Part shown: piece by piece, positions 9,431 to 55,275 of the stretch | How positions within the stretch are numbered: the stretch's first letter is position 1 | Layout of the letters: every line of letters begins with the position of its first letter | Assembly (NCBI GenBank): GCA_017428785.1 | Contig: JAFRQD010000048.1 | Coordinates: forward strand, 56,358-120,357 | Direction of reading: 5' to 3' | Length of the DNA: 64,000 nucleotides | DNA from: Bacteroidaceae bacterium | GTDB lineage: Bacteria; Bacteroidota; Bacteroidia; Bacteroidales; Bacteroidaceae | Made by a program: the position numbers and the translations under genes | The notes under the pieces: generated by a model | The model's input: only the letters and a program-made list of their open reading frames with translations | What the model was told of the DNA's origin: nothing | Database searches by the model: none

Positions 9431-9438
9431 GGTCGGTG

Positions 9439-13397: not shown

Positions 13398-14990
13398 TCA
13401 CCGCTTCTTCCCCCTCAAGGTCACGAGCGGGACGAGCATCTCCTCCATACTGATGCCGCCGTGCTGGAACGTGTCCTTGTAGTACCCCACATAGTAGTTG
13501 TAGTTGTTGGGGTAGGCGAAGAAATCGTCCTGCATGGCAAAGATGTAGGTTGTGCTGATGTTGGGACTGGGCAGCCCAGCACGAATGGGGTCCTTTATCT
13601 CGAAGACCTCCTTCTGGTTGTAGGAGAGGTGCTTGCCCAGCTTGTAGCGGAGGTTGGTGTTCGTGTTGCGGTCTCCGATGACCTTGATGGGGTTGTAGCA
13701 TCGTATGCTGCCGTGGTCCGTGGTGAGCACCACGGTGCAATCCTGTGCGGCGAGGCTTCGGAAGAGGTTGCTCACCGCCGAATGGCGCAACCAGCTCTGC
13801 GTGATGCTCCGATAGGCGGCTTCGTTGCTTGCCAACTCCCTCACCATAAGGCTCTCCGTGCGAGCGTGGCTGAGCATATCTATGAAGTTGACAACCACCA
13901 CATTAAGGTCGTTCTTCAGCAACTGCGGTATCTGGGTGACGAACTTCTCGGCAGCGCTGGAATGGTTTATCTTATGGTAAGAGAAGGTGTTCTTGCGGCG
14001 ATAACGCTCGAACTGCGTGCGGACGAGAGGCTCCTCGTTGAGGTTCTTGCCTTCCTCACTGTCCTCGTCGACCCAAAGGTCAGGGAACATCTGGGCAATC
14101 TTGTTGGGCATGAGACCGCTGAAGATAGCGTTGCGCGCGTACTGCGTAGCGGTGGGAAGGATGCTGCAATAGAGGTTCTCGTCCACCGTAAAGGCGTCGG
14201 CTATCTCGTTCAGCAGCACGCGCCACTGGTCGTAGCGGAAGTTGTCGATGACGATGAGGAAGACCTTCTCGCCCTTGTCGAGCAGGGGAAAGACGGCTCG
14301 CTTGAAGATGTCGGGACTCATCAAGGGCCGCTCCTCCGACTTCTCGGGCGCTTTTGCTCCAAGGCGCGCTTCCTGTGCGCGGTCCTCCATCCAGGACATG
14401 TAGTTCTTGCGGATGAACTTGGCGAACTCCGCGTTGGCCTCATGCCGCTGCATGGCAAGCATCTCTTTCATGCCGCTATCCGTCTCGCTCAACTGCAGCT
14501 CCCAATATGTCAACTTCTTATAGACATCCTTCCACTCCTCGATGCTCGAAGCGTCGTTTATCTGCATGCCGAGGCGGGAGAAGTCCTGCTGGTAGTTGCT
14601 CTGCGCATGCTCCGTCACGATTTCCTTCTGCTGGATGTTCTTCTTCAGCGTCAGCAGGATTTGTGTGGGATTGACGGGCTTGATGAGGTAGTCGGCAATC
14701 TTGGCGCCAATGGCCTGCTCCATGATGTGCTCCTCCTCGCTTTTCGTCACCATCACCACCGGTGTGGCAGGCAGCAGCTCCTTGACGCGATTCAGGGTCT
14801 CGAGGCCGCTCAAGCCAGGCATGTTCTCGTCGAGAAGAATGAGGTCGAACGCCTCCTCCGCACAACGGTCAAGGGCATCGTAGCCGTTCGTCACGGTCTC
14901 CACTTCATAGCCTTTGTTCTCGAGGAACAGAATGTGGGCTTTCAAGAGCTCTATCTCGTCGTCCACCCAAAGCAACTTGTATGTAGTCAT
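13398..14990 (-). CDS. porX: Response regulator with a PglZ/alkaline-phosphatase-like output domain, PorX-type (T9SS regulator)
   Basis: The receiver domain reads LLWVDDEIELLKAHILFLENKGY...DENMPGLSGLETL...VVMVTKSEEEHIMEQAIGAKIADYLIKPVNPTQIL, followed by a ~380 aa PglZ-like domain. It strongly resembles PorX as I remember it from Porphyromonas. Confidence 0.75.
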   Translation of the reverse strand: MTTYKLLWVDDEIELLKAHILFLENKGYEVETVTNGYDALDRCAEEAFDLILLDENMPGLSGLETLNRVKELLPATPVVMVTKSEEEHIMEQAIGAKIADYLIKPVNPTQILLTLKKNIQQKEIVTEHAQSNYQQDFSRLGMQINDASSIEEWKDVYKKLTYWELQLSETDSGMKEMLAMQRHEANAEFAKFIRKNYMSWMEDRAQEARLGAKAPEKSEERPLMSPDIFKRAVFPLLDKGEKVFLIVIDNFRYDQWRVLLNEIADAFTVDENLYCSILPTATQYARNAIFSGLMPNKIAQMFPDLWVDEDSEEGKNLNEEPLVRTQFERYRRKNTFSYHKINHSSAAEKFVTQIPQLLKNDLNVVVVNFIDMLSHARTESLMVRELASNEAAYRSITQSWLRHSAVSNLFRSLAAQDCTVVLTTDHGSIRCYNPIKVIGDRNTNTNLRYKLGKHLSYNQKEVFEIKDPIRAGLPSPNISTTYIFAMQDDFFAYPNNYNYYVGYYKDTFQHGGISMEEMLVPLVTLRGKKR

Positions 14991-15030: not shown

Positions 15031-18006
15031 TCACCAGCCAAAGGGGAAGTCGTCGTCATCTTGTGCCTCTGCCTCTTGCTCCTTCTCCTCCTGCTCCCGC
15101 TTGTCAAGCTCGTCGGGATCAAGAATCTCGAGGTCTGCGGGCGTATCTATCTTGAGGTCATCGGGCACATCGAGCGGGGCGAAGTGTTCGTCGTAGAAGG
15201 CTTTATAGTCTTCGAAGCTGAACTCTTTGCCTATCATCTTGAGGTTGTCGTCGGAGATGAGCAGCGTGCGGATGCCCTCGAGCCTCGTGCGCATGTGTTC
15301 GTCGGCATAGAGCTTCTGTGCATAGGCATGCACTTCGTCGTAGGCAAGGAAGCCTTTTATGATCATCATGGTCAAGCCGGCATCAGCCTGTATCTCGATG
15401 TCGAAGTTACGTGCCATGAAGTTCGTGAAGTTATAATGCGCCATCTCAAAGACAAGCATGTTCTCGTCGAGACTGCCCGTCGGGTAAGCGAGGACGAAGT
15501 TGAAGTTGCAGTAGCGGTCGTCCTTGAGTGTGGGGGCGGTATCTGTGCTGTCGCTTGCTTCGCCACGGGAGCGGCGGCTCCAGATGCTGCTGGCGTCGTA
15601 GCGGTCGTCCATGAGCAGGCGCCCTTCATCAAGCCCCTTGACAATGGACTGGGCAATCTCTGTGACCTCTTCCCTCGGGAACTTCTGCACGACATCGCGA
15701 AGCGTGACCATGAAGGTGTCGCGTTCGCCTCCGTAGAGTGAGCTCATGGCCCGGATGAACATCATGCGGGCTCTGTGTTTGCCTTCGGGGAAGTTGTCGG
15801 TGCTGAACTGATAGTTCTCCTCGACCTTTGCATAGTTCTCTGTCTGATAGGCTGCGTAGGCTTCTGCATAGATACTGTCTTCGACGTGCTTGCCTTCGCG
15901 AGCTATCATCTCGTAGTTCGGGTTGCCGAGCAGGAAAGCGAGCTTGGCGTCGGGATAGTCCTCGAGCAGATAGCCTTTATATTCCTCTGCGCCTTCCAGG
16001 TCCTCGAGGCGTCCGTAGAGCAGGAAGAGGTGATAGAAGACATTGTCTATGTTGTCGTGTTCCGGGAAGTCGTTGAGGAAGCGGATCATCGTCTTCTCTG
16101 CCAGAGGGAAGTTCTCGAGCTGTTCCTGTTCCTGGATGCCGGCATTGTAGAGGGCGTCGCCAAGCAGACGGTTCGATTCCGCCATCTGCTCTTCTGTGAA
16201 AGGTATCTGCTTGAGATAGTATTCCCGCTCATGGGGGTCGTTGGCCAGAGAGTCCTTGCGAGCCTGTTCCTTTGCGGCGATGCTGTCGGCCTCGGCTGCG
16301 CTGGTGGCGGCGCCGAAGAGGCTGTCGGCTGCGGCCTCGTCGAAGTCTGCATACTTCTTGGCTTCTTCTTCGCTCATGTTCTTGAGGAGAGACTGCTTGT
16401 TGCTGATGCGCCAGAAGTTCTCATTAGGTCGGGTGCCCCAACGCCTCTGGAACTCTTGGAGACCGCTGCGCACTGTGTTGGGATTGTAGAAGTACCAGTC
16501 GCCCTGCTGCTGGCCGCCCATCATGCCCATCTGGTTCATCTGGCTTGCTCCGCCTTGCTTGTTCATCCCTGCTCCGTTGTTCCCTGCCATGCCATTGTTC
16601 GGGGCGTTGGGGTTGAGGGTGCCGTTGGCGGCAGCCTTCTTGGCTTCCTCTTTTTCCTTCCTGCGAAGCTCGGCAATGACGCGGTCGATGGCTGCAAGGT
16701 AAACCTCTTCCGGACTCTGTGCCAATACCTGCAGGCTGTCTTGCAGCTTGATGGTGCTCAGGTGCGGTTCCAGGTCGTTGAGTATCTTGCTGCGACGGTC
16801 GCTTTCCTTGTATTCCTGATGTTCCTTGTCGAGCGCGCTGACGCACTGCTTGTAGGTGCGGGCTGCCTCGATGTAGTTCTCCTGTCCCCAGTAGAGCTGG
16901 CTGAGGTGGAGGAGCAGTGTGGCCTTGTCGGGGCCGTTCTTCTTGCTTTCCTCCAGACCTTTCTCCCAAGCATAGATGCAGTGGGTGGTGTCCTCGTTGC
17001 TGAGGTAGATGTTGCCCATCGCATAATAGACCTTGTCGAGGTAGTCCTTGTTCTTGTCGCTCTTGGCCATGCGCTTGAGGCGTGCTATCATCTGGCGGAA
17101 CTTGCCCTTGTGCATGACTTCGGTCTGCATGATGCGGGCGTTGAAGGCTATCTCGTAAGGCGGATTGGCGCGTATCACTTTGGAGAGCGCCTTGTAGGCC
17201 ATCGTGTCGCGGCCTGTCTCGTGATAGAGCTGGGCCAACAGGAAGTTGAGACGCGCCTTGGGCAGCTTGCCTTTGGTTGTCTTGATGGTATTCTTCAGGT
17301 AAGGGATAGCTTCCTGATACTGACGCGTGAGCACATAGTAGCCTGCCTTCGTGTTGTCCACCTCCGCCTGTCCTTTGCGCGTGATGCTGTCCCGTTTCAT
17401 CTTGTTCAGCAGGTCTTCTGCGTCGTAAGGCCAGTTCAGGGCCACATAGCATCGCGCCAGCTTTGCCTTGGCGACAGATGTGATGTCGGGCTGCGAGCTG
17501 TAGAGGCGCAGGATATAGTTGTAGGTGGAAGCCGCCTCGAAGAACTCGCCCTTCTGGAACTGAGCGTCCGCCATCATGAACCAAGCGCGGTAGATGTAGG
17601 GATTGAACTCCTTGCGTGCAAGGAACTCCTTCTCCTTTTCCGAGCGCCTTTTGTTGCCTTTCGTGACGGGACGCTTCTTGATGCTGTGCACCTTGATGGC
17701 CTTCTCGCTCTTTGTGATGGCGGTCTCGTAGTTGCTCTTGCCCATGCCTGCCGTCGACTTGTTGGTGCAGATATACATGGGCAGTATTTCGTTGAAATTG
17801 TCCTTGTGGCCCTTGCTTTGTGCCTCAAAGCCCTCGAGGTAGGCCACTTGGCCGTTGTAGAGCGTATTGTAGTGAGCCGTCAAAGCATGGTAGGCACGAG
17901 TGGCGGATGTGTTCTTCTTGGTGGTACACGAGACAATGAGGACAAGCAACATGATGAAGCCCATCATGCCGCAACGCCTTATACGTATAGACTTTTGCCT
18001 GCTCAT
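15031..18006 (-). CDS. porW: TPR-repeat lipoprotein, PorW/SprE-like T9SS component
   Basis: It has a lipobox (LIVSC), then AYHALTAHYNTLYNG, many TPR-like repeats and a Gly/Asn/Gln/Met-rich low-complexity insert. It lies in an operon with porX. The start may instead be the internal MMGFIM. Confidence 0.55.
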   Translation of the reverse strand: MSRQKSIRIRRCGMMGFIMLLVLIVSCTTKKNTSATRAYHALTAHYNTLYNGQVAYLEGFEAQSKGHKDNFNEILPMYICTNKSTAGMGKSNYETAITKSEKAIKVHSIKKRPVTKGNKRRSEKEKEFLARKEFNPYIYRAWFMMADAQFQKGEFFEAASTYNYILRLYSSQPDITSVAKAKLARCYVALNWPYDAEDLLNKMKRDSITRKGQAEVDNTKAGYYVLTRQYQEAIPYLKNTIKTTKGKLPKARLNFLLAQLYHETGRDTMAYKALSKVIRANPPYEIAFNARIMQTEVMHKGKFRQMIARLKRMAKSDKNKDYLDKVYYAMGNIYLSNEDTTHCIYAWEKGLEESKKNGPDKATLLLHLSQLYWGQENYIEAARTYKQCVSALDKEHQEYKESDRRSKILNDLEPHLSTIKLQDSLQVLAQSPEEVYLAAIDRVIAELRRKEKEEAKKAAANGTLNPNAPNNGMAGNNGAGMNKQGGASQMNQMGMMGGQQQGDWYFYNPNTVRSGLQEFQRRWGTRPNENFWRISNKQSLLKNMSEEEAKKYADFDEAAADSLFGAATSAAEADSIAAKEQARKDSLANDPHEREYYLKQIPFTEEQMAESNRLLGDALYNAGIQEQEQLENFPLAEKTMIRFLNDFPEHDNIDNVFYHLFLLYGRLEDLEGAEEYKGYLLEDYPDAKLAFLLGNPNYEMIAREGKHVEDSIYAEAYAAYQTENYAKVEENYQFSTDNFPEGKHRARMMFIRAMSSLYGGERDTFMVTLRDVVQKFPREEVTEIAQSIVKGLDEGRLLMDDRYDASSIWSRRSRGEASDSTDTAPTLKDDRYCNFNFVLAYPTGSLDENMLVFEMAHYNFTNFMARNFDIEIQADAGLTMMIIKGFLAYDEVHAYAQKLYADEHMRTRLEGIRTLLISDDNLKMIGKEFSFEDYKAFYDEHFAPLDVPDDLKIDTPADLEILDPDELDKREQEEKEQEAEAQDDDDFPFGW

Positions 18007-24329: not shown

Positions 24330-24548
24330 AACGGCCCTACAGGCCGAATTCACCGGACAGCAATAAAAAACTTTAGTTCACAATTCATATCTCACTATAC
24401 ATATTTTCTTTTCTTATTACACCAAATTTTTATTCCTCCCTCCCTGCCGAAACTCTTCCGGCGAGCCGTAAAGGCGGATTTGGCGGCCTGAATCGCCCCT
24501 TCCCGGCAGTCGCGCCACAAAACCCCGCAGGCGGCGTTCATTGATTTA

Positions 24549-24606
24549 TCATGATGCAGCAATTGATTATTCATGATGCAGCAATTGAATCATCATGATG
24601 CAGCAA
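24549..24606. repeat. Three CATGATGCAGCAA copies at 22-23 bp spacing
   Basis: The copies start at 24549, 24572 and 24594. Confidence 0.85.
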
Positions 24607-24700: not shown

Positions 24701-24748
24701 CAAAAAGAAGAGCGGCCCGCCTGACTGTCTTGTCAAGCGGGCCGCTCT
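24701..24748 (-). terminator. Intrinsic terminator after small peptide A
   Basis: On the minus strand: agagcggcccgc-loop-gcgggccgctct followed by a T-rich tail. The stem is homologous to the terminator at 26878-26922. Confidence 0.7.
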
Positions 24749-24813: not shown

Positions 24814-24990
24814 TTACCATTCCTCGTCCCAGATGTTCTTGCTGTCGGCACTTTCCTTGGCCATACCAGTTGAACCTCCAGGGATTGGATTGTCATCGTT
24901 ATCATTCAACTGTCCATCGGAGGCTGCGATGATGCTGCACATAGAGAGGGTGACAGTGAGTGTCTCGGGAATAATATATGTCTTTTTCAT
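24814..24990 (-). CDS. Small acidic peptide A (58 aa), MKKTYIIPE...NIWDEEW family
   Basis: MKKTYIIPETLTVTLSMCSIIAASDGQLNDNDDNPIPGGSTGMAKESADSKNIWDEEW. It starts ~40 nt downstream of T9SS cargo A and has three paralogues in the window. Confidence 0.6.
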   Translation of the reverse strand: MKKTYIIPETLTVTLSMCSIIAASDGQLNDNDDNPIPGGSTGMAKESADSKNIWDEEW

Positions 24991-25031
24991 TGTCTTATGC
25001 AAATTATAATTTAAGAGAAAAGATTTTAGAA

Positions 25032-26690
25032 TTAGAAGAGAACCTTCTTACCGTTCACGATGTTGATGCCCTTCTGCATCTTCTGGAGGCGCTGGCCTGC
25101 AAGGTTGTAGATAGCACCACCTTCAGCAGCATTGTGGATTGCCTCAATGCCTGTAGCATTCTCGTCAAAGACGAAGCTCTTCACATTGACATCGCTATCG
25201 ATAACGACATAAGCGCGATCCATAGCCACTGTGCTCTCATTAGCTCTGTAGAAGCCAATGTTATGAGTAGCATCTGCATAAAGAATGAAGACCTTGTTTG
25301 TTGCACTGTAGGTTAATATTACACTCGAGCCCTGACCGCGACGAAGGACATTGGTAGCAGGCACCTCATCGGGTGTTTCTGTAGTGACGGGAATTTCAAC
25401 CTCGCCATTGGTGCCACCTGCCTTAACAAGAACTACAGGAACTCCAGCGCCAACGATGTTAATGGGATTATACACGAGTCTGGTGCCGTCCAAAGTCAGA
25501 TAAGAAACCTGAATGCCAGAGTTTGTGAAGTCGAGCGCTCTGTCGCAGCAGAATGTTGCATAGCCGTAGCTGCTTACAGACACCTTAATCAGAGAAGCGA
25601 GCGTCGTCAAATCGATGTCGTCGATGGCGGCATAGCTGCCACTGTTAGCGCTGCAAGAAATGCGGACATACACATCAGAATATTCGCCCAGGTTGACTTC
25701 AACCTTTTGGTAGCTTGTGCCGGTAATGCTCTTTGAGGTTACAGCATCACCCCAGTTAGTGCCATCGGAAGAAACATTGACAGACCAGGTAGCTGTGGCA
25801 TCTGCACCACCTCTTGCATAGAAGGTGAGAGTGCCAGGACTGGTGATTTTCGTTGTGGTTGTGATTGTAGAGCCATTGTGTGCACGGCCACAATTTTCGC
25901 CAGCATGATAAATGTAGTTTGACTGTTCAACGCCGCTGAATACCCAGCTTTCCTCATAACTGGTCAAAGCGCTTTCGAAGTCAACCTTATATTCAGGAGA
26001 AACCGAACTACGATCGAAGTTGATGGTCACCTTAACTGTTGTGCCTTCAGCTGCTTCGGTCACAGCAAATTCGTTGCCATTCTGGGTTACGGTAGCTGTA
26101 CCTTCCGTCACAGTATAAGCAGGCTCTGCAAAGACATAGCCCATAGTCGGCTTGGCTGTGATGACATTGCCCACAACAGACTGGATTGTTCCCCAACCCT
26201 CTTCGTTTACTTCAGCTGTAACTGTATAGGGGAAAACGGGAGCGGTGTAAGTGACTGTGACAGATTGAATCGTGAGGTTTGTATAAGTATAATCATGGGA
26301 AAAAGCCACAGACTCACAATCCAAGCCAGAAACTGTGATAGTCTTCGATGAACTCAGATTTTGATTACTTCCATTGTCCACTGAATAATGCCAAGCATGA
26401 GCATCACTTGCAACAAACTCAATGGAATGGATCTTTGAACCATAGGTCAGAGCCTCTGCTGTCAAAGAGACAGTAAACTTGTCACTTGATGCGGGTACTG
26501 TTATAGCATGACCGCTCAAAGCACCTGTCGTTGAATAAGTGACGAAGGGGTCCACTTTTCCACTGGCAGCAGTGAATTTAGTGAGGGTAGCTGTAACATC
26601 TTCTGCCCAAGCTGTGCCTGCAAAGGCTGTAGTCATAACGGCTACGAGCATGCAGACGCGCAGCCATACCTTGTTAAATACTTGTTTCAT
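25032..26690 (-). CDS. T9SS cargo protein A (552 aa) with a C-terminal sorting domain
   Basis: The signal peptide MKQVFNKVWLRVCMLVAVMTTAFAGTAWA is nearly identical to that of cargo C. The C-terminus GGAIYNLAGQRLQKMQKGINIVNGKKVLF fits the Por_Secre_tail/CTD pattern. A shared pre-CTD module begins at SSYGYATFCCDRALDFT. Confidence 0.7.
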   Translation of the reverse strand: MKQVFNKVWLRVCMLVAVMTTAFAGTAWAEDVTATLTKFTAASGKVDPFVTYSTTGALSGHAITVPASSDKFTVSLTAEALTYGSKIHSIEFVASDAHAWHYSVDNGSNQNLSSSKTITVSGLDCESVAFSHDYTYTNLTIQSVTVTYTAPVFPYTVTAEVNEEGWGTIQSVVGNVITAKPTMGYVFAEPAYTVTEGTATVTQNGNEFAVTEAAEGTTVKVTINFDRSSVSPEYKVDFESALTSYEESWVFSGVEQSNYIYHAGENCGRAHNGSTITTTTKITSPGTLTFYARGGADATATWSVNVSSDGTNWGDAVTSKSITGTSYQKVEVNLGEYSDVYVRISCSANSGSYAAIDDIDLTTLASLIKVSVSSYGYATFCCDRALDFTNSGIQVSYLTLDGTRLVYNPINIVGAGVPVVLVKAGGTNGEVEIPVTTETPDEVPATNVLRRGQGSSVILTYSATNKVFILYADATHNIGFYRANESTVAMDRAYVVIDSDVNVKSFVFDENATGIEAIHNAAEGGAIYNLAGQRLQKMQKGINIVNGKKVLF

Positions 26691-26804
26691 ACCAATAAAA
26701 CTTAAAAAATTGCTTTGGTTAATACTGTTTATTTTGTTATTTCGAATTGCAGATAATCAAGACACTTCTTGGCTTATATCTATAAGTCTTCTACAAAACG
26801 GGCG

Positions 26805-26812
26805 CAAAGGTA
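26805..26812 (-). promoter_or_regulatory. -7 box TACCTTTG for cargo A
   Basis: The plus strand reads caaaggta, ~115 nt upstream of the ATG at 26690. Confidence 0.5.
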
Positions 26813-26877
26813 TGACATTTTTAGCAAGCAGCAAAGGGATATTCCATATTTCTGTATATAGATGCAAATAAAGTACA

Positions 26878-26922
26878 ACAAAAAAGCAGCCCGCCTGACA
26901 AAAAATGTCAAGCGGGCTGCTC
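26878..26922 (-). terminator. Intrinsic terminator after small peptide B
   Basis: On the minus strand: agcagcccgcttgac-loop-gtcaggcgggctgct followed by tttttt. Confidence 0.75.
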
Positions 26923-26972
26923 TATATTGACTTGCCCCTCTAAAGGAGGAGGCAAAGCTGAGGTATTACCTA

Positions 26973-27140
26973 TTACCACTCTTCGTTCCAGACATTCTTG
27001 TCGGAAGCGCTTTTGACTTCAACATTTGCTGCGTCAACAGAGCCGGTGGTGTCGACGGTCACATTGGGCGAAGCGGCCAGCACCTTATGTGCTCCAAGCC
27101 TTATCTCTTCCGATGCTGGTATGATATATGACTTCTTCAT
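26973..27140 (-). CDS. Small acidic peptide B (55 aa), same family
   Basis: My own translation reads MKKSYIIPASEEIRLGAHKVLAASPNVTVDTTGSVDAANVEVKSASDKNVWNEEW. Its ATG overlaps the TGA of cargo B (ATGA). It is below the ORF-track length cutoff. Confidence 0.6.
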   Translation of the reverse strand: MKKSYIIPASEEIRLGAHKVLAASPNVTVDTTGSVDAANVEVKSASDKNVWNEEW

Positions 27141-29752
27141 CTCCTGAGCACTTTTTTACCGTTCACGATATTGATGCCGCGCTGCAACTTCTGGAGGCGC
27201 TGACCGGCGAGGTTGTAGATAACTCCGTTGTCTGTTGTCTGTTGTCCGTTGTCAATGGTCTCAATGCCAGTCGCGTCATCATCGAAGCTGAAGGCTAAGA
27301 CTTTGACATTGCTGTCGCCAATAGCGCTTGCCGGAAGCAGAGCTTTGCCCTTGGGCGCTGTGCCTGGGTTGACCTTGACAAAGGTCTGGCCGCTAAGACC
27401 GTAATAGGCATCTGCCTCAACATAAGTGGGAGCAAGAGTGCCTTCAAGCAGATTGCCGTCCAGCACATTGTCGCTGGCAGCAGAAGTCAACGCAATGGTA
27501 GCGCCTGGTTCGCCTTTCAGCAAGAGGCCTGTGCCTCCCTTAACCTTGCCCGTCACCTGTTCGAAGGTGATGGCTGTCCCGTTCACACCGGTTATCTGCC
27601 ATGCACTGTAGTCCTCGGCATCGGTGAAGTCAAGAGGATACTCGGAGCAATAGGTGGCATAGCCGCTCGCATTCAGGTTTGTGGTGAGACTATTCGTCGC
27701 AAAATGCACGATAATGCTGGTGATTTGAGTGTTATAAGCATTCGTCACCTGTAGAGTATAAACCGTTCCTGCACTTCGATGGGATTCATCGATGATGTAG
27801 CTATTTGTTCCCGTGGATCCTGTTGTTTCTGTGCTGACAGAAGTATTGCCTACATAGATGTTCTGCTTAACCTTAGAAGAAGCTCCCGTTCTACCAATAA
27901 CATCTATCCTTGTTACTGCCTTATCGAAAGCAGGAAGAGTCAATGTGGAGCCGCTCTTGCCAAGAATCAAATATTTATCCTGTGCATTATAGTAATAGGA
28001 GGATGAAGCAGTTAACGTAACAGTATAGCCTTGGGCATTAGTATAACTCTTGGTAGTGTTTGTTCCTGTGGTTGGCAAATCCCAGCTATTTGATGTGAAG
28101 TCCAATGTCTCCGTTGACTCGGCCACGTATGCCTCCGTCTTCCCTTCCGGTTGAGTCACCGTAAAGATAAATACACTGTTGCTTGAGTTGTAGTCAGTGC
28201 CTTCGCCATAAGTGACGCTGATGATGCATTCTCCCACAGCAACAGGCGTAACGGTAAGCCCGTCGACAGTGGCCACAGCTTCGTTGCTGCTGCTGAGTGT
28301 CACAGAGCCGTCGGTAGTAAAGTGCGTACCATTAACCAACGTGAATGATGAGCCGTAAGGAACAGTCGTAGGGGTGCTGTATGTGGTAGGGTTTATCTGT
28401 TCGGCCTCCACGAACTTGTAGAGCTGGATGGCCTTCTGACTTGTATAAGTAGAACTCTTGAAGTAACGGAAACGCTCCTGACCTGATGTGGCATTATACC
28501 TGAGATATGCGCCACCACTGCTCTTGATATTGGCATTGCCATCTCCATCAAAGGAAATAGCGTTCGTATAGCTTTGGGTTGTGCTTGAAGAAAGTCCGTT
28601 AGAATCGCTCGTGTTGCCTATATAATAGCCACTTGCACTCTTTATGGAGTAGCCTCCGCTAATTGCTGTGATGGTAAAGGCAGAGGCGTTGACCGTTGCC
28701 GATGCACTGATGGCATTGCCGGAGATAGTGACAGACTGAGTATTCTTCGTGGCATCGAGCGATGTCAGCGAACCGTCGAAGACAAGACTCCCGCCTTCAT
28801 AGACAATGAGATACTGACCGTCGGTGAGGTCGTCGGCAGAAGTAACCTTTACATAAGTGTCGCCTGCAGGTGTGTCTCCGCCTTGACCTCCGCTACTGCT
28901 GCCACCATCGTAGTTGTCGTAGCTGAAGGCCTCGTTCGTCTTGCTGCCCCAGATGTATTGTTCCAGACCAGGATAGTCGATGAAAGGATTGCGGTTGCCT
29001 TGAATGCCATAGACAGCATTGTTGCGAGCCGTCTCCTTTTGGCTTACAGGGTCATCTGCTGCCCAGGCAAGAAGCATGCTCAGCTGCCAAGCCTTTAAGC
29101 CCGGATATGTATTGCCGTCAAGCGTCGCCCTTGAATCACTGTAGTTCGAGTACCAATCGGGGAGTTTCTCCTCATAACGCGTCACCATATAAAAATATGT
29201 ACGCGCGAAGTCACCTTTGTACTCATCGTTTGGCTCGAAGACCGTGCCTGAGTATCCGCTGACAGAACAAGTGCCCAGTTTGCTGAAGCCGTTGGCTGAG
29301 GAGTAGGAGGCATTTCCCACTTCTCCGAAGGGATAGTTGTCGCGCTTGTTATTTACAAAGCCGTCGGTAGGATACATGTGGTGCAGGTCGGTGTACATCG
29401 GCCCCACCTCTCCCCCAAACCAACTCTTTGGGAACGAATGCTCGCGATTGTACTTTTGGTTTTCCCCATCGAAATTACCTGCTTGGTCTGTGCCGAACGT
29501 ATAATTGGTGATGTTGGAATACATATCCCACACCTTGCCGTCGCTGCGCTTGTCCGTGGTTCTGAATGCAGTCCAAAGATAGTCGTACGACTTTTCTATA
29601 TTCGTTTGGATGATGCCGCAGAGCGCAGTCTTCAGGGCAGCGCCCTTCTTGCCGTCGGCGTTCCTATAGTAATCGCCCGAACTGTTCGGCGCAGCAGCAA
29701 AAGTGCACATCGCCACTGCAGCCAGCAGCAAGGTCATGTAAGTTCGTTTCAT
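27137..29752 (-). CDS. T9SS-secreted extracellular nuclease (Endonuclease I family N-terminal domain plus accessory domains and CTD)
   Basis: The start at MKRTYMTLLLAAVAMCTFAAA gives a signal peptide. NREHSFPKSWF and DLHHMYPTDGFVNNKRDNYPFGEV match Endonuclease_1 motifs. The C-terminus is VIYNLAGQRLQKLQRGINIVNGKKVL. Confidence 0.7.
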   Translation of the reverse strand: MKRTYMTLLLAAVAMCTFAAAPNSSGDYYRNADGKKGAALKTALCGIIQTNIEKSYDYLWTAFRTTDKRSDGKVWDMYSNITNYTFGTDQAGNFDGENQKYNREHSFPKSWFGGEVGPMYTDLHHMYPTDGFVNNKRDNYPFGEVGNASYSSANGFSKLGTCSVSGYSGTVFEPNDEYKGDFARTYFYMVTRYEEKLPDWYSNYSDSRATLDGNTYPGLKAWQLSMLLAWAADDPVSQKETARNNAVYGIQGNRNPFIDYPGLEQYIWGSKTNEAFSYDNYDGGSSSGGQGGDTPAGDTYVKVTSADDLTDGQYLIVYEGGSLVFDGSLTSLDATKNTQSVTISGNAISASATVNASAFTITAISGGYSIKSASGYYIGNTSDSNGLSSSTTQSYTNAISFDGDGNANIKSSGGAYLRYNATSGQERFRYFKSSTYTSQKAIQLYKFVEAEQINPTTYSTPTTVPYGSSFTLVNGTHFTTDGSVTLSSSNEAVATVDGLTVTPVAVGECIISVTYGEGTDYNSSNSVFIFTVTQPEGKTEAYVAESTETLDFTSNSWDLPTTGTNTTKSYTNAQGYTVTLTASSSYYYNAQDKYLILGKSGSTLTLPAFDKAVTRIDVIGRTGASSKVKQNIYVGNTSVSTETTGSTGTNSYIIDESHRSAGTVYTLQVTNAYNTQITSIIVHFATNSLTTNLNASGYATYCSEYPLDFTDAEDYSAWQITGVNGTAITFEQVTGKVKGGTGLLLKGEPGATIALTSAASDNVLDGNLLEGTLAPTYVEADAYYGLSGQTFVKVNPGTAPKGKALLPASAIGDSNVKVLAFSFDDDATGIETIDNGQQTTDNGVIYNLAGQRLQKLQRGINIVNGKKVLRR

Positions 29753-29790
29753 AGTTAGTTTTACAAACTTTTGTATATTATCATAACAAT

Positions 29791-30411
29791 TTATTGTCTG
29801 TTGTAGTCCTCGACTGCCCATAGGATGCTGCGTTTCATTTCTTCCCACGAAACATCCTTGAACATTCGGGGCATAGGGTTCTGCTCAGCATCTTCAAAAT
29901 AAGTGAGACTTAACAGCGCACGATATTCAGAGTAATTCGGATACTTCTCCTTGTAGAAAGCAAATATCTGAGACAGACCATAATGCTGAATGAGAAAATA
30001 CATATCTACGAAATCCTTCCTCGTTCCGCGCCCAAGAATAGCGTTAACCTTCAGCGCTGCAATATCCTTTGGTGAAGCCAAGCGCAAGCCATCTTCAAGA
30101 ATCGGGTCGTCTATCCAAGGATAGCAATCATAGCTGACGAAATCAGTCTTTACGCCACAGACACGATAAGTCTTAATCTTCGCCGTGCATCTTTCAGGAA
30201 TAGTTTGCCCTATTTGTTCTAAGACGGAGGTCGTTATCTGCGTGTCTTCCTCAATAGTGCCAAAGAAATCCAAATCAATGGAACTGCGATGCCCATACTG
30301 TAAGGCCAAAGCAGTACCGCCAACCAGACGAGTCTCGGAGAACAAAGGTTCTGCCATCAGACGTCTCAGGAGTTCCAAAGTGTTGGGTTGGATTGTCTGG
30401 TACGATAGCAT
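29791..30411 (-). CDS. Nucleotidyltransferase AbiEii/AbiGii-family toxin (type IV TA)
   Basis: LVGGTALALQYGHRSSIDLDFF near the N-terminus and the ~200 aa length are typical of the DUF1814/AbiEii family in Bacteroidota. Confidence 0.65.
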   Translation of the reverse strand: MLSYQTIQPNTLELLRRLMAEPLFSETRLVGGTALALQYGHRSSIDLDFFGTIEEDTQITTSVLEQIGQTIPERCTAKIKTYRVCGVKTDFVSYDCYPWIDDPILEDGLRLASPKDIAALKVNAILGRGTRKDFVDMYFLIQHYGLSQIFAFYKEKYPNYSEYRALLSLTYFEDAEQNPMPRMFKDVSWEEMKRSILWAVEDYNRQ

Positions 30412-30740
30412 CTGTATTCTTCTTTCTTAGTATGTGATATAGCACAGATGAAAGATAGGCAAACGGGATCAAGGGTACGCAAGCCCTTACAAACCTCCAC
30501 AATTTTCGGCAGCTCGTAAATCTCATTGATAAGCTTCCAATCCTGCATCTCCCCATACTCCAGGACACGCTGAATCACATAAGCAGGATACTTGTTCAAA
30601 TCCAACTTCGACAGGTCCGCGTCCCAGAACAGATTTTCCGTGAAACGGCTCATAATGTTTTCCTCGTCGGCCTGATGCAATGCCATCTTCATTCTTTTCA
30701 AAATTGCGCTTCTCAAAACCTCATCATCGCTCCCGCCCAC
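30366..30740 (-). CDS. Putative cognate antitoxin/partner of the AbiEii-like toxin (family not confidently recognised)
   Basis: It overlaps the toxin start by 46 nt. FWDADLSKLDLNKYPAYVIQRVLEYGEMQDWKLI resembles small proteins I recall upstream of AbiEii-like genes in Bacteroidales. The start codon is uncertain. Confidence 0.45.
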   Translation of the reverse strand: MGGSDDEVLRSAILKRMKMALHQADEENIMSRFTENLFWDADLSKLDLNKYPAYVIQRVLEYGEMQDWKLINEIYELPKIVEVCKGLRTLDPVCLSFICAISHTKKEEYRCYRTRQSNPTLWNS

Positions 30741-30805
30741 TTAAGGGCAGGAGCGATGAGAGACAATTCAATACATCTTACGTCCGACATCAGACGCAAG
30801 TCTGC

Positions 30806-30985
30806 TTACCACTCCTCGTCCCAGACGCCTTTGTCGGTCGAGTTGTTCTCCTTTGTCAGGATTTGGCTTTGGTCATCGATTACTGGAGCGTCTGAATCAC
30901 TATAGACAGTCAGTGACTGAGCCATCATTTGCATTGCTACGAGCTGTATAGTCAGCGATTCGGGAATAATATATGTCTTTTTCAT
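30806..30985 (-). CDS. Small acidic peptide C (59 aa), same family
   Basis: My own translation reads MKKTYIIPESLTIQLVAMQMMAQSLTVYSDSDAPVIDDQSQILTKENNSTDKGVWDEEW. It lies ~100 nt downstream of cargo C and is below the ORF-track cutoff. Confidence 0.6.
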   Translation of the reverse strand: MKKTYIIPESLTIQLVAMQMMAQSLTVYSDSDAPVIDDQSQILTKENNSTDKGVWDEEW

Positions 30986-31082
30986 AATATATATACCTTT
31001 TTTTCTTTAAAAGTTAAGAGTTACGAAAGAAATATTCCTTCCCCAACCCCTCTTTTGAGGAGAGGGCTGGGGTGAGGCTTTT

Positions 31083-34000
31083 TTACTTCAGAATCTTCTT
31101 TCCGTTCACGATGTTGATGCCGCGCTGCATCTTCTGGAGGCGCTGACCTGCGAGGTTGTAGATAACTCCGTTGTCTGTTGTCAGTTGACCGTTGTCAATG
31201 GTCTCGATGCCAGTTGCGTCATCGTCGAAGCCATAGAATGCCTTTGCCTGACCGGCAGAAGATGTAACCTGGAGGTAAGCCTTGCCTGCAGGAATCACGA
31301 TGCCAGCCTGCACCTTGTAGAAGCCAACGCCATCAAACTGAGCGAGGCAATACTGTGAGCCGTCGGCAGTAACAGCAGCTGTAGCAGCAACGAGGTCGTT
31401 GTTGGTGATTTCAGCAACAGTTTCTGTAGTATAGGTGAACTCATAAGTGCCTGCACTTGCCTTTACAAGGACAGCTGCACCAGCAGGAATGCCATCAGTA
31501 ACTGCTGTGAGTTGAGCAGAAGTAGCACCCTCGTTGACTTTCGCAGCATAAACCTCAACACCCGTAGGAATTTCGAGATTTGCGGCAGCAACTATTGTGG
31601 CATAACCGGCAGGACTTACAGTCACAGTCTGAGAGGTGGGAACTTCCTCTACCTTCTTGTAGAGCTGGATAGCTTGCTGACCAGTCTTATTATAGTAACG
31701 GAAACGTTCTTGACCAAGTGCGCTGTTAAAATACAAACTATAATCACCAACTGTTATGGATACATTGCCGTCGTTGAATGTAATGATATTTGCTTGAGCT
31801 TCTTCGCTTGTGTTCAACGTGTTCTTGCTTCCTGTATGATAGATATAAAGCCCACTTGCTGAACATATAGAATATCCGTCTTCCATTGCGGCAATCGTAA
31901 CTTCTGCTGCTTCTGTTGTTTCATCTGCTGCAATCTCGTTATTACTGATAGTCACACTAATCGTATTGCTTGCAGCATCCAATTCTTCAAGACCACCATT
32001 GAAGGCTACGCTGCCCTCTTCATAGACGATGAGGTACTGGCCATCGGTGAGGTCATCTGTAGAAGTTACCTTCACATACTTGTCACCAGTAACAGGTGTT
32101 ACACTACCCTGTACTGCTGTAGCATTGATTGTCACACTGCTGTTAGGCATATAGAACGACCAAGCACCTTGGGTTTCTGTTAAGGTCACTTCGTTATTGC
32201 TTGCATCCAGAACAGTGACGCTCTCCAAAGTATATCCCTCTGTAACGCTGAGAGAGAAGTAAACCAATGTGCCTACTGCCACATTATCACCCAACGTAAT
32301 ATCTTCCATGTCGCCATCATAAAGACTTGATATTTCAACATGGCTCAATGTTCCTGCAGTAACGGTTGTTTGGACAGGTGCCTCAACTTCTTCAATGTCA
32401 GCAGCACTGCGAGGAAGAATTTCCTTGGTGCTGTTGAACTGCTGATAAACACCTGTGATGTTATAAACCTTACCTGCTTCAAGAGCACCAAAAGCAAACA
32501 GAGAGTTGTAAACCTGAATAGAGGTTGTGCCGTCAGTAAGATAATACTTAGTGGTACTACCGCTATCATCAACACTGCAAGTGAGGTTCTCATAGCTAAC
32601 AAGTGCACCAGTATTCACACCAGCGAGGCTTGCCATTGCGACATTGGCTGTTGTTACAGAGCCACCTGTAGTAATCGTCAGGTCAGAAGCATTCAAACCA
32701 GTAACCTCTGCAGAGCCATTAAACTTTTGCACCTTACAAGCTACTGCTGTACCAGAAAGAATGTTGCCAACTGAATAGGTGTTGTTCAAACCACCATTAG
32801 TATCATAGATAATAAAACCGTTACCTGCATTGTCAGTAACAAAGACATTCTTGCCATTTGTTGAAATGGCAGAAACAACCCAATTATTGAAGGTTACATT
32901 CACATCTGTTGCTGTGCTCCCTACTTCTGTTGCTTTTTCAAAGAGGGCGGGAATAGTTGTGTAAATGACAGGAGCAGCAGCCTGAGTGACTGTCACTTCC
33001 TTAGTTACAGAGCCATAGGTCAAAGTAACAGTAGCAGAGCGGCTTTCTGTTGCTTCATTTGCAGTAGCAGTAAATGTCACGGCACTTTCACCTACAACAA
33101 AATTAGAAATCCAATTAGCATTAGCAGTTGTTGATGCCGTGAGAGATGTACCTTCAACGGGATTGCTGATTGTGTAGTTGATGCTACCACTTGTTGCGTT
33201 GTATGCGATGTTCACATCGCTTGCAGAAATAGAGGGATCTGTGCTAGGCAGACCAATAGTGATAGTAGCTTTGGACATATCACAACGGCTACTTCCACTA
33301 CCAGTGAAAAGAACAGATGATTCTGAACCTGTCCAGGTTTTAGAACTCGAGTTATAAGTTCCATTATCGGCAGAAATTGTTGCACTCCATGTTCCTGCAG
33401 AAGTGAAAACAATACTCTTGATTTCATATCCTTCTGGAGCGTCAAATGTCAGTTTGTTATTCGGATAGAAGCGAATTTGAGAGTCATTGACATAGTGATT
33501 ACCACCGCCAGCATATGTTATTGTTACATTGTCTTTTGTTCCGCTGATAGGAGTATCATCTGTAATGCCAGCTGCTGAGCCACCATAGTTTGTACCAAAG
33601 AAATTGTCATTGAGAGCTATCTCTATTTCTGTCGGCTGCACATAAGGAGCACTGCTAGTAACTGTCATCTCGTATGTGGCAGAAGAAGACTGATAGGTAT
33701 TAGCCACACCTGCATAGGTGGCAGTGAAGGTAACTGTGCCTGCTCCAACAAGGGTAACTGCACCATCTGCATCAATGGTAGCAACGTCCTCATCGCTTGA
33801 ACTCCAAGCAACGGTTGCACCAGAAACGGCAGAGCCATTAGCCGTAACTGTTGCAGACAAAGAACCTGCAGCTGTGCCAGCATAAACATCTGTGTTTGTA
33901 ATGCTTGTTGCATCAATGGTAGTTGTGGTCTCTACAGCAGAAGAACCGCCAGTAGAATAAGTAACAGTAACACCATCTATACGTCTATTGCCTGTTGAGC

Positions 34001-34406
34001 CGCCAATAGTAAATTTCACACTCGAAGCAGAGCCTGTCCAAGTGCCATTAGTGTATGTTCCTACATCTGTAGTAATTTTGTTTGAGCCGTCACCGTTACC
34101 AAAACTAATAACAATTTTAGTTATAGTATAGGAACTGGTTACAATGAAGTAGTTACCACCATAGCAACGAATAGCTGTTCCTGATGTAAAATACTTTGGA
34201 GCATTTGATGAGTTTGTTCCTTTATCAAAAGTAATACTGAATGCCGTTCCTACATACTCATCAATGGTTTCGTTATTTACATAATTTTGTTCAGAGAATG
34301 TTACACTCTCTTCTGCTGCCCAAACTGTTCCAGCTAGGGCGGTGGTCATTACGGCTACGAGCATGCCGACACGCAGCCAAAACTTGTTGAATAGATTTTT
34401 TTTCAT
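31083..34406 (-). CDS. T9SS cargo protein C (1107 aa): Ig-like (Big_2-type) repeats, modules shared with cargo B, and a CTD
   Basis: The signal peptide is MKKNLFNKFWLRVGMLVAVMTTALAGTVWA. A Big_2-like segment reads VAWSSSDEDVATIDADGAVTLVGAGTVTFTATYAG. The module YVKVTSTDDLTDGQYLIVYE...QERFRYY...AIQLYKKVE is shared with cargo B. The C-terminus is VIYNLAGQRLQKMQRGINIVNGKKILK. Confidence 0.7.
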   Translation of the reverse strand: MKKNLFNKFWLRVGMLVAVMTTALAGTVWAAEESVTFSEQNYVNNETIDEYVGTAFSITFDKGTNSSNAPKYFTSGTAIRCYGGNYFIVTSSYTITKIVISFGNGDGSNKITTDVGTYTNGTWTGSASSVKFTIGGSTGNRRIDGVTVTYSTGGSSAVETTTTIDATSITNTDVYAGTAAGSLSATVTANGSAVSGATVAWSSSDEDVATIDADGAVTLVGAGTVTFTATYAGVANTYQSSSATYEMTVTSSAPYVQPTEIEIALNDNFFGTNYGGSAAGITDDTPISGTKDNVTITYAGGGNHYVNDSQIRFYPNNKLTFDAPEGYEIKSIVFTSAGTWSATISADNGTYNSSSKTWTGSESSVLFTGSGSSRCDMSKATITIGLPSTDPSISASDVNIAYNATSGSINYTISNPVEGTSLTASTTANANWISNFVVGESAVTFTATANEATESRSATVTLTYGSVTKEVTVTQAAAPVIYTTIPALFEKATEVGSTATDVNVTFNNWVVSAISTNGKNVFVTDNAGNGFIIYDTNGGLNNTYSVGNILSGTAVACKVQKFNGSAEVTGLNASDLTITTGGSVTTANVAMASLAGVNTGALVSYENLTCSVDDSGSTTKYYLTDGTTSIQVYNSLFAFGALEAGKVYNITGVYQQFNSTKEILPRSAADIEEVEAPVQTTVTAGTLSHVEISSLYDGDMEDITLGDNVAVGTLVYFSLSVTEGYTLESVTVLDASNNEVTLTETQGAWSFYMPNSSVTINATAVQGSVTPVTGDKYVKVTSTDDLTDGQYLIVYEEGSVAFNGGLEELDAASNTISVTISNNEIAADETTEAAEVTIAAMEDGYSICSASGLYIYHTGSKNTLNTSEEAQANIITFNDGNVSITVGDYSLYFNSALGQERFRYYNKTGQQAIQLYKKVEEVPTSQTVTVSPAGYATIVAAANLEIPTGVEVYAAKVNEGATSAQLTAVTDGIPAGAAVLVKASAGTYEFTYTTETVAEITNNDLVAATAAVTADGSQYCLAQFDGVGFYKVQAGIVIPAGKAYLQVTSSAGQAKAFYGFDDDATGIETIDNGQLTTDNGVIYNLAGQRLQKMQRGINIVNGKKILK

Positions 34407-34774: not shown

Positions 34775-34885
34775 AAAACGCGGCGTTTGCAGACTTCGCA
34801 GGCGGCGTTTGGAAACTCCGCAGGCGATGTTGGCAATTTCCGCAGGCGGCGTTTGGATTTTCCGCTGCCTGCGTTGGCGGATTTC
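34775..34885. repeat. 22-bp-period CCGCAGGCGGCGTTTGG-type palindromic array
   Basis: It belongs to the same family as 12843-12934, with 4-5 degenerate units. Confidence 0.8.
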
Positions 34886-55015: not shown

Positions 55016-55058
55016 CAGAAAAAGCGCTGAGGCAAGCGAACTATGTCGCTTGCCTCAG
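55016..55058 (-). terminator. Intrinsic terminator after small peptide D
   Basis: On the minus strand: ctgaggcaagcga-loop-tcgcttgcctcag followed by gcttttt. Confidence 0.7.
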
Positions 55059-55104: not shown

Positions 55105-55275
55105 TTACCATTCCTCGTCCCAGAGGTTGACGTTCTTGTTTTCCTTTGTCAGGATGTCGCCTTCGTCATCAATTATGTCATCACTGCTGTCAACAATAGG
55201 CAACGACTCTGCCATCATGTGCATTGTGCCGAGCGCAACAACAAAGCAGGTCGGCTGATTATAAAACTTCTTCAT
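55105..55275 (-). CDS. Small acidic peptide D (56 aa), same family
   Basis: My own translation reads MKKFYNQPTCFVVALGTMHMMAESLPIVDSSDDIIDDEGDILTKENKNVNLWDEEW. Its ATG shares one base with the TAA of cargo D (TAATG). It is below the ORF-track cutoff. Confidence 0.6.
   Translation of the reverse strand: MKKFYNQPTCFVVALGTMHMMAESLPIVDSSDDIIDDEGDILTKENKNVNLWDEEW

Follow-up and report, generated by a model that had tools for sequence, protein, structure and literature searches.

What is a gene for an acidic protein of fewer than 60 residues doing directly behind a gene for a large secreted protein, four times over, in one stretch of a Bacteroidaceae genome? The stretch (the window, 64,000 nucleotides; assembly GCA_017428785.1, contig JAFRQD010000048.1, positions 56,358 to 120,357) was first described in an earlier note made from the sequence alone. 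The note proposed that four cargo genes with unrelated N-terminal halves share a module just before a T9SS C-terminal sorting domain, and that each is followed by a gene for a small peptide that is a dedicated partner of that module or of the secretion pathway. The observation is confirmed, and it extends well beyond this genome. The interpretation is partly supported: the gene pairing follows the module, but the proposed role is inferred.

All eight open reading frames lie on the minus strand, with cargo genes taken from their ATG starts. The features are as follows; p denotes a small-protein gene and c its cargo gene, and bit scores are against profiles built for the small-protein family and for the module.

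24814..24990, minus strand: small-protein gene p1 (58 aa, MKKTYIIPE...NIWDEEW), 73 bits; identical to NCBI hypothetical protein IJK51_06870
25032..26690, minus strand: cargo gene c1 (552 aa), with a Sec signal peptide, a weak F5/8-type C hit and the C-terminal module (272 bits)
25035..25595, minus strand: C-terminal module of c1 (beta-sandwich, linker, basic tail), from the module alignment
24709..24748, minus strand: terminator-like hairpin after p1 (dG -36.5 kcal/mol), followed by a T-run; the next bases are TCTTTTTG
26973..27140, minus strand: small-protein gene p2 (55 aa), 75 bits; its ATG overlaps the c2 stop codon (ATGA)
27137..29752, minus strand: cargo gene c2 (871 aa), with Endonuclease I (Endonuclease_1, E 7e-75), Big_2 and the C-terminal module (261 bits)
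27140..27694, minus strand: C-terminal module of c2, from the module alignment
26883..26923, minus strand: terminator-like hairpin after p2 (dG -34.0), followed by a T-run
30806..30985, minus strand: small-protein gene p3 (59 aa), 93 bits; identical to NCBI hypothetical protein IJK51_06900
31083..34406, minus strand: cargo gene c3 (1107 aa), with Big_2, BACON and the C-terminal module (273 bits)
31086..31637, minus strand: C-terminal module of c3, from the module alignment
30720..30762, minus strand: terminator-like hairpin after p3 (dG -34.6)
55105..55275, minus strand: small-protein gene p4 (56 aa), 102 bits; its ATG overlaps the c4 stop codon (TAATG)
55275..58406, minus strand: cargo gene c4 (1043 aa), with F5/8 type C, a weak Glug hit and the C-terminal module (271 bits)
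55278..55817, minus strand: C-terminal module of c4, the one modelled with AlphaFold2
55027..55058, minus strand: terminator-like hairpin after p4 (dG -23.5), followed by a T-run; the next bases are CGCTTTTTC
15031..18006, minus strand: context, T9SS lipoprotein PorW/SprE (NF052312, 661 bits against a cutoff of 250)
13398..14990, minus strand: context, T9SS response regulator PorX (NF052313, 829 bits against a cutoff of 300)

The gaps from cargo stop codon to peptide ATG are 41, -4, 97 and -1 nt for pairs 1 to 4, respectively. The four peptides align end to end, with invariant residues M1, K2, K3, Y5, P8, L15, A22, S24, D30, K45, W54, E56, E57 and W58. The four cargo proteins share a C-terminal module of about 185 residues, whereas their N-terminal parts are unrelated.

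Are the small genes real? Absence of homologues outside this genome had been named at the outset as grounds for rejecting the finding, and so had neutral evolution; neither was observed. The small ORFs belong to a conserved family, MKKxYxxP…AxS…K…W[DN][ED][ED]W, that comprises 265 clusters at 90% identity and 1,194 representatives at 50% identity, almost all 45–65 aa. The median dN/dS is 0.41, and 99.5% of pairs fall below 1, indicating purifying selection. Moreover, invariant Pro8 uses all four codons, and the conserved Glu residues mix GAA and GAG. The family has no Pfam or NCBIfam model. However, the note's expectation that routine annotation would miss these ORFs is wrong: NCBI lists IJK51_06870 and IJK51_06900 as hypothetical proteins, and the ENA, JGI and Logan gene calls include these ORFs.

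Does the pairing hold elsewhere? Here too a criterion had been set beforehand, namely that homologues should be linked to CTD-bearing genes. Across about 120 loci from ruminant-gut Prevotellaceae/Bacteroidaceae MAGs and metagenomes, 109 peptide genes lie -4 to +234 nt downstream, on the same strand, of a gene ending in the shared module. These comprise 39 of 42 peptide genes in 32 genome loci plus the window, and 70 of the 78 scorable peptide genes in 80 metagenome loci. In loci chosen by the module rather than by the peptide, 8 of 9 module genes are followed by the peptide gene. Counted another way, 86 of 97 genes with sandwich plus tail are followed by it, as are all four module genes in the window. 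The linkage is not absolute: about 10–20% of module genes lack the peptide; four loci place a family member after a Flg_new_2 plus Dockerin_1 gene (the dockerin sequence was read in all four, but Pfam was run on only one of them); and three loci carry orphan members. Nevertheless, this is far beyond chance.

What, then, does the peptide track? As the note had claimed, it is the shared C-terminal module and not the functional N-terminal domains; this holds in more than 100 loci with very different cargo bodies. In another strain (L033), the whole cargo body is replaced while the tail and the identical peptide stay together; the conserved segment corresponds to the c3 tail plus p3 (30799-31230). 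Peptide identity and module identity correlate (Mantel r = 0.34; none of 2,000 permutations reaches it), although the covariation signals could come from shared descent of the cassette alone. Peptide charge and tail charge do not co-vary (rho 0.007), even though the peptide has a median net charge of -5 and the last 30 cargo residues have +5.

The layout resembles an operon. Start and stop codons overlap or abut in 14 of 39 pairs. Strong hairpins follow 84% of the peptide genes (median dG -25.9, against -13.5 in controls), beginning a median of 42 nt after the stop codon. No third gene recurs in 112 loci. Each cassette is therefore read as a two-gene operon: promoter, large Sec-exported protein, acidic protein of about 56 residues, and intrinsic terminator. 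This structure is inferred from same-strand adjacency, start/stop overlaps and the terminator-like hairpins, as no transcript data were examined.

Is the cargo tail a T9SS sorting domain, as the note had labelled it? The label is not supported by any model at threshold. The four window proteins give no hit at E <= 0.1 to the type A models (PF18962 and TIGR04183); only 2 of 42 modules give weak hits (E 6e-4 and 0.013); and typical short tails from the same loci also fail, the best at E 0.037 and 14 bits against a cutoff of 23. The type B and type C models are likewise not matched. In the AlphaFold2 model of the c4 module (mean pLDDT 85.9), residues 1–125 form a beta-sandwich at above 90, followed by a low-confidence linker and a short C-terminal hairpin. 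The tail, only about 45 aa, is thus not predicted as the seven-strand Ig-like sandwich of about 70–100 aa seen in RgpB, PorZ and Hbp35. A Foldseek search of the PDB lists no solved CTD, the best E-value being 0.28, and the sandwich that precedes the tail has no structural match.

Other features do resemble type A cargo. The extreme C-terminus has the Gly-hydrophobic strand and the Lys residues typical of motifs D and E: it reads IYNLAGQRL...KGINIVNGKKVLK, and in the module alignment IYNLAGQRLxKMQKGINIVNGKKVLK, with near-invariant G, K and K. The cargo proteins carry hydrophobic Sec signal peptides (Kyte-Doolittle hydrophobicity, KD, 2.2–2.8). PorW/SprE and PorX are encoded in the window, and another module-bearing contig encodes a Peptidase_C25 protein next to PorV; whether cargo secretion depends on this machinery was not tested. 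The tail is not demonstrably a T9SS signal.

What does the small protein itself look like? Modelled alone it is predicted to be disordered (pLDDT 59, pTM 0.19). It has a conserved N-terminal motif (MKKxYxxP, then a weakly predicted short helix ending in A-x-S), a variable Gly/Ser/Asp-rich linker, and a conserved Trp-acidic C-terminal motif (K-E...N-V-W-D-E-E-W). The N-terminus is not a Sec-type (SPase I) signal: although the A-x-S site is conserved, 173 of 246 members have a charged residue within 14 aa after Pro8, and the maximum 10-aa KD has a median of 1.57, well below that of the cargo signal peptides. A periplasmic role, or the co-secreted role that the note had suggested, would need an unknown export route. 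PDZ-type docking of a free C-terminus, also suggested there, is unlikely, because a large subfamily ends ...YNVWDDDWS(N/K), with 1–3 residues after the last Trp.

The explanation favored, tentatively, is that the small protein is a dedicated accessory of the cargo's conserved C-terminal module, that is, of the beta-sandwich and the basic T9SS-like tail. It would be made beside the cargo C-terminus, often by translational coupling, and would then bind the module as a two-motif chaperone or adaptor, keeping it competent for export, sorting or surface attachment. The family, its selection, the gene pairing, the operon-like layout and the presence of T9SS genes in the genome come directly from the data; binding to the module, the compartment (probably the cytoplasm, because there is no Sec-type signal) and any effect on secretion are inferences, for neither physical nor functional interaction was examined, and the evidence for a chaperone or adaptor is limited to genetic linkage and co-divergence. 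Lacking a Sec-type signal, the peptide may never meet the folded module in the periplasm. A bolder version is possible but doubtful: the cassettes would define a new class of T9SS-type secretion signal, a beta-sandwich plus a short basic tail, that needs its own co-translated mini-protein, whose two conserved motifs would bridge the cargo C-terminus to an export, sorting or attachment component. This would be the first cargo-class-specific small chaperone or adaptor described for type IX secretion. In agreement with the note, no literature precedent was found for a T9SS accessory of this kind.

Among the alternatives, two survive about equally, and both are unlikely. In the first, the peptide is a cytoplasmic regulatory reporter: each cargo operon would release a stoichiometric small acidic protein that titrates a regulator, for example the PorXY-SigP pathway or another factor, matching secretion capacity or envelope stress responses to cargo load without touching the cargo. 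The peptide would be co-expressed as the last cistron of each cargo operon; there are several copies per genome, with conserved end motifs and a variable linker; no signal peptide is present; PorX lies in the window; and the members found after dockerin-ended genes or as orphans fit a role not tied to one module. However, linkage to one module family is very tight, at about 90%; peptide and module co-diverge; no regulator gene recurs nearby; and there is no precedent.

In the second, the peptide is exported. The first 24 residues would act as an atypical leader cleaved after the invariant A-x-S, releasing an acidic Trp peptide of about 30 residues that meets the cargo module or the T9SS outside the cytoplasm, or acts as a secreted signal. 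The MKK start, the near-invariant A22 and invariant S24 in the -3/-1 positions, a leader of about 24 aa, the helix predicted (at low confidence) at residues 9–19, and the roughly 30% of members with no charged residue in the segment after P8 are consistent with this view. Against it, 70% of members have one or more charged residues in the would-be h-region and 45% have two or more; the p2-type N-terminus (IIPASEEIRLGAHKVLAAS) is plainly not Sec-like; the most conserved residues (K2, Y5 and P8) lie in the N-terminal part, which is unusual for a generic signal peptide; and there is neither a Cys lipobox nor a twin-arginine motif.

Less likely still is a ribosomally made natural-product precursor, modified and exported by enzymes encoded elsewhere, as for the dispersed prochlorosin precursors or Trp-crosslinked peptides such as darobactin. 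The genes are short and multi-copy, the layout (a conserved leader-like N-terminus, a hypervariable middle and a conserved aromatic C-terminus, which would serve as follower) is suggestive, and the motifs are aromatic-x-x-x-aromatic (WDEEW, YNVWDDDW). Yet no maturase, protease or transporter recurs in the 112 loci, although an unlinked maturase is not excluded; no Pfam or NCBIfam leader model is hit; and translational coupling to unrelated large secreted-protein genes is not a feature of known precursor genes. Least likely is a role in cis, as a 3' ORF that stabilizes the mRNA or as an arrest or termination-coupled peptide whose released product would not matter: the fixed position just before a terminator, the strong conservation of the last ~16 residues (which would fit a ribosome-tunnel arrest motif) and of the first five codons (ATG AAA AAG ACA TAT) are outweighed by selection on the amino acids at both ends with free synonymous change, by hairpins that begin outside a terminating ribosome's footprint, by the position of known arrest and leader peptides upstream of the gene they control rather than at the end of the operon, and by an N-terminal motif that would already be outside the ribosome tunnel.

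Which known systems come closest? For T9SS type B CTDs, studied in Flavobacterium johnsoniae and P. gingivalis (PMC12618676, PMC9143113), the cargo is likewise defined by a conserved C-terminal region rather than by its functional domains, and cargo genes are often linked to genes for cognate PorP/SprF shuttle proteins (PMC12618676). A region longer than the minimal CTD (more than 200 residues) is needed for secretion (PMC10202324), much like the ~185-aa module here. However, the adjacent gene here encodes a 53–65 aa acidic peptide, predicted to be disordered and without a signal peptide, and no PorP/SprF-like gene recurs nearby. Small acidic secretion chaperones and adaptors, including T3SS class I chaperones, T6SS Eag/DUF4123 adaptors and Tat REMPs such as TorD, are cytoplasmic, are encoded adjacent to the cognate secreted protein, and are specific for a targeting region rather than for the catalytic part. 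There is no sequence or fold relation, and those proteins are folded, at about 100–200 aa. T9SS cargo crosses the inner membrane unfolded through Sec, and the T9SS effector review searched never mentions a chaperone.

Finally, rumen and gut Bacteroidota enzymes in the PDB carry the same tail: 4KCA_A (an arabinanase), 7JVI_A and 8BBL_A. No partner peptide is known for them, and the paper examined describes no function for the appendage. Their C-termini match the module profile (4KCA_A residues 578-681 at E 3.8e-7; 8BBL_A residues 735-888 at E 0.002), and the module is therefore a recurrent appendage of secreted glycoside hydrolases.

The four cassettes comprise eight ORFs, all of which lie where the earlier note placed them:
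24814-24990, minus strand, small ORF p1 (58 aa), starting 41 nt after the stop codon of c1
25032-26690, minus strand, large gene c1
26973-27140, minus strand, small ORF p2 (55 aa), starting at -4 nt relative to the stop codon of c2
27137-29752, minus strand, large gene c2
30806-30985, minus strand, small ORF p3 (59 aa), starting 97 nt after the stop codon of c3
31083-34406, minus strand, large gene c3
55105-55275, minus strand, small ORF p4 (56 aa), starting at -1 nt relative to the stop codon of c4
55275-58406, minus strand, large gene c4

The observation is confirmed. The four peptides align without difficulty, with fourteen invariant residues: M1, K2, K3, Y5, P8, L15, A22, S24, D30, K45, W54, E56, E57, and W58. 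The four large proteins have different amino-terminal parts: Endonuclease_1; Big_2 plus BACON; F5/8 type C with a weak Glug hit; and a weak F5/8 type C hit only. They share a carboxyl-terminal module of ~185 aa, and each carries a hydrophobic amino-terminal signal peptide, nearly identical in c1 and c3. In addition, c2 (residues 290-461) and c3 (residues 766-932) share a second, internal module of about 170 aa (YVKVTS.DDLTDGQYLIVYE...QERFRY...AIQLYK; 53% identity, E 2e-38), for which Pfam gives only weak sub-threshold hits (Fascin and PRP8_domainIV, on c2).

Neither Pfam nor NCBIfam recognizes the small ORFs. The earlier note had made the existence of homologues outside this genome a condition for its claim, and these are abundant. 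A profile of the four peptides found 265 clusters at 90% identity, of which all of the best 120 are 53-81 aa and are called "hypothetical protein" where named; among them are the window's own copies, IJK51_06870 and IJK51_06900, from a Bacteroidaceae MAG. The earlier note's expectation that annotation would miss these ORFs is therefore wrong, as routine gene callers do find them. An exhaustive HMMER search of 1.84 billion representatives found 1,194 clusters at E <= 0.001, nearly all 45-65 aa; the cluster names of distant members were uninformative. The family consensus is MKKTYIxPxxLTVxLGTxxMMAESL, followed by a variable Gly/Ser/Asp/Thr-rich stretch and then ILTKENKDVNLWDEEW. Across the family, K2, Y5, P8, S24, and the two Trp residues are invariant. 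Neutral evolution, likewise named beforehand as fatal to the idea, is not what was found: median pairwise dN/dS is 0.41, with 99.5% of pairs below 1, while Pro8 uses all four codons and the conserved Glu residues mix GAA and GAG. Selection acts on the protein.

A further condition set in the earlier note was that homologues be linked to CTD genes. A scan of one genome per GTDB species with one carboxyl-terminal pattern returned 32 loci, all from uncultured Prevotellaceae, Bacteroidaceae, or Bacteroidales MAGs, most of them named for rumen or other ruminant-gut samples. HMMs were then built for the peptide and for the module, and six-frame ORFs were scanned. Of 42 peptide genes, 39 lie -4 to +234 nt downstream, on the same strand, of an ORF that ends in the module; one more sits at a contig edge, and two are degenerate orphans. 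Fourteen of the 39 pairs overlap or abut, which is typical of translational coupling. A metagenome scan with a divergent subfamily, ending ...YNVWDDDWS(N/K), gave the same picture, with 70 of the 78 scorable peptide genes linked.

Because these loci were chosen by the peptide, contigs were also looked up for proteins found with the module profile; in these, 8 of 9 module genes are followed by a family member. Over all loci, 86 of 97 genes with sandwich plus tail are followed by the peptide, whereas genes with only a distant tail mostly are not. One apparent exception turned out to carry a more divergent peptide, ...WDFGW. Clustering of all ORFs of at least 120 aa in 112 loci found no recurrent third gene, which argues against a linked maturase, transporter, or PorP/SprF-like gene.

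Each peptide gene in the window is followed by a strong hairpin (dG -23.5 to -36.5). The next 12 bases are T-rich in three cases, whereas after p3 there is only a short TTTT. Across 118 loci, the best downstream hairpin has a median dG of -25.9, against -13.5 for control positions, and starts a median of 42 nt after the stop codon. The unit is therefore cargo gene, peptide gene, terminator. The hairpins after p1 (window 24709-24748) and p2 (window 26883-26923) share nearly the same stem (AGAGC[G/A]GCCCGCTTGACA...), and a similar stem appears after a peptide gene in another locus, L003. This may be a repeated terminator or REP-like element.

The peptide goes with the module rather than with the enzyme, as the earlier note had proposed. 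In another strain (locus L033, 6219-9506, compared with window 30799-34406), the flanks are 92-98% identical to the window, but the whole body of cargo c3 is replaced by an unrelated 1000-aa protein (Flg_new, CHB_HEX_C_1, Fn3_assoc). Homology stops inside the signal-peptide codons (window 34312-34406), resumes in the last ~150 nt of the cargo gene, and runs through the identical peptide gene (window 30799-31230). The conserved ends may serve as recombination arms for swapping surface-protein bodies. Peptide identity and module identity also correlate across 33 pairs (Mantel r = 0.34; 0 of 2,000 permutations reach it), although shared descent of the cassette could explain this on its own. Inter-protein mutual information is read in the same way: the top pairs exceed a permuted-pairing null (0.56 against at most 0.36), but they involve subfamily-defining columns, suggesting shared descent and not contacts. 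The region between p3 and c2 (window 29791-30740) also differs between the strains. There, an AbiEii-family nucleotidyltransferase gene (29791-30411) and a DUF6922 gene are absent from the otherwise collinear L033, so this looks like a recent insertion of a toxin-antitoxin or abortive-infection pair.

AlphaFold2 with 90 homologues gives a confident model of the module (mean pLDDT 85.9), in which residues 1-125 form a predicted β-sandwich at above 90, followed by a low-confidence linker and a short carboxyl-terminal hairpin. A Foldseek search of the PDB found nothing below E 0.28. The module profile finds 1,273 homologous clusters, and none of the best 120 has any Pfam domain. By sequence, the module matches the carboxyl termini of three solved gut or rumen enzymes: 4KCA_A at E 3.8e-7, and 7JVI_A and 8BBL_A at about 0.002.

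The tail (IYNLAGQRLxKMQKGINIVNGKKVLK) looks like motifs D and E of type A CTDs, which carry the essential lysines. However, Pfam and NCBIfam models gave no T9SS CTD hit at threshold: no window protein matches such a model; only 2 of 42 modules give weak hits; and a second scan, of eight more modules, returned nothing at all. Even the more typical short tails in these loci fail. Many secreted proteins there end in ...YDLSGRRV...KGIYI.NGKKVIIK, which the type A model TIGR04183 does not detect (best E 0.037); five of these have no trailing peptide gene (L116 17384-19093, L045 8530-10182, L007 7402-9363, L091 866-4414, and L115 5189-9025). Current CTD models may under-call cargo in rumen Prevotellaceae. 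The genome does have T9SS genes: PorX (13398-14990) and PorW/SprE (15031-18006), both well above cutoff, are adjacent on the minus strand of the window, about 7 kb from the three-cassette cluster. Another module-bearing contig encodes a Peptidase_C25 protein next to PorV. "T9SS cargo" is thus a reasonable inference, but the tail does not meet the T9SS CTD models, and the label used in the earlier note is only partly verified.

The peptide is acidic, with a median net charge of -5. Alone, it is predicted to be disordered, with a weak helix at residues 9-19; the model is of low confidence (pLDDT 59) and was not used for a fold search. Its amino terminus is not a Sec signal: 70% of members have a charged residue in the would-be h-region, and hydrophobicity is well below that of the cargo signal peptides. 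Nor is it a lipoprotein, since the Cys at position 18 is not conserved. The last 30 residues of the cargo are basic (+5), but there is no compensatory correlation between peptide and tail charge across 76 pairs (rho 0.007). A large subfamily has one to three residues after the last Trp, which argues against the PDZ-type recognition of a free carboxyl terminus entertained in the earlier note.

The wider family is not tied to this one module in every lineage. Four metagenome loci from two closely related lineages (L089 4060-5190; also L104, L106, and L107) place a family member (...YSVWDDDWSE) after a short gene, of 295 aa, that ends in a dockerin-like sequence instead of the sandwich-and-tail module. 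The sequence was read in all four; Pfam on L089 confirmed Flg_new_2 plus Dockerin_1 (type I) at E 1.5e-10. A BspA-type LRR / F5/8 type C protein of 1155 aa lies just upstream. Three further loci (L080 about 2822-3004, L103 about 536-721, and L110 5001-5183) carry an orphan subfamily (MKKxYxKP...NINYGGGS...ARVKQxDYNVWNDDWNK) with no cargo gene upstream; in L110 it lies near DUF6175, caspase-domain, WecG/NTP_transf_5, and glycosyltransferase genes.

Together, these results establish the gene pair but not its function; the interpretation in the earlier note is supported only in part. The best-supported reading, held tentatively, is that the mini-protein is a module-specific accessory, which would be made next to the cargo carboxyl terminus and act as a two-motif chaperone or adaptor for export, sorting, or attachment. 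This role is inferred from gene context, and no peptide-module interface was modelled. The nearest precedent within type IX secretion is the pairing of type B CTD cargo with cognate PorP/SprF shuttle genes (PMC12618676; PMC9143113). There the partner is a PorP/SprF-type shuttle protein, not a 56-aa peptide. Literature searches for WDEEW and for T9SS-linked small proteins found nothing relevant, and the T9SS effector review that was searched does not contain the word chaperone. The family is real, conserved, and previously undescribed; its gene-context association is one of the tightest one can expect; and it is restricted, as far as sampled, to ruminant-gut Prevotellaceae-like bacteria.

Rumen Prevotellaceae are major fibre degraders, and much of their enzyme and adhesin repertoire is displayed or secreted. 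Here, a large set of secreted proteins with highly varied amino-terminal parts shares one unannotated module, and nearly every one is paired with the same unannotated mini-protein. If the mini-protein is needed for export or anchoring, it adds a component to a secretion pathway for which that review describes no cargo chaperone; it gives a simple genomic marker for a cargo class that current CTD models miss; and it would have to be co-expressed for heterologous production or display of these enzymes. The pair is also a clear example of a small protein whose likely role can be read from gene context, and shows cargo bodies being exchanged between conserved signal-peptide and tail-plus-peptide ends.

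Other readings are less likely. A cytoplasmic regulator that reports cargo expression is doubtful, and an exported peptide with an atypical leader, which the conserved A-x-S keeps possible, is about equally so. A natural-product precursor with an unlinked maturase is improbable; a radical-SAM-like CxxxCxxC motif (RCNIHCRHC) does occur in the ORF downstream of a module gene that lacks the peptide (locus L022, about 8950-9450), but it was seen only once and does not recur in other loci. A purely cis-acting 3' ORF is least likely of all; attenuation through stalling at the stop codon was rejected because the hairpins begin about 42 nt beyond it. Finally, a programmed frameshift fusing cargo and peptide was considered, because p2 and p4 are, on inspection of the sequence, in the -1 frame behind an A6 run. 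It was dropped, as other loci use other frames and their gaps of 20-230 nt mostly hold stop codons.

Tandem repeats flank the cassette cluster (window 23875-24041, 24540-24606, and 34780-34893): an 88-bp unit (1.9 copies, 98% match) and two arrays with 22-bp units.
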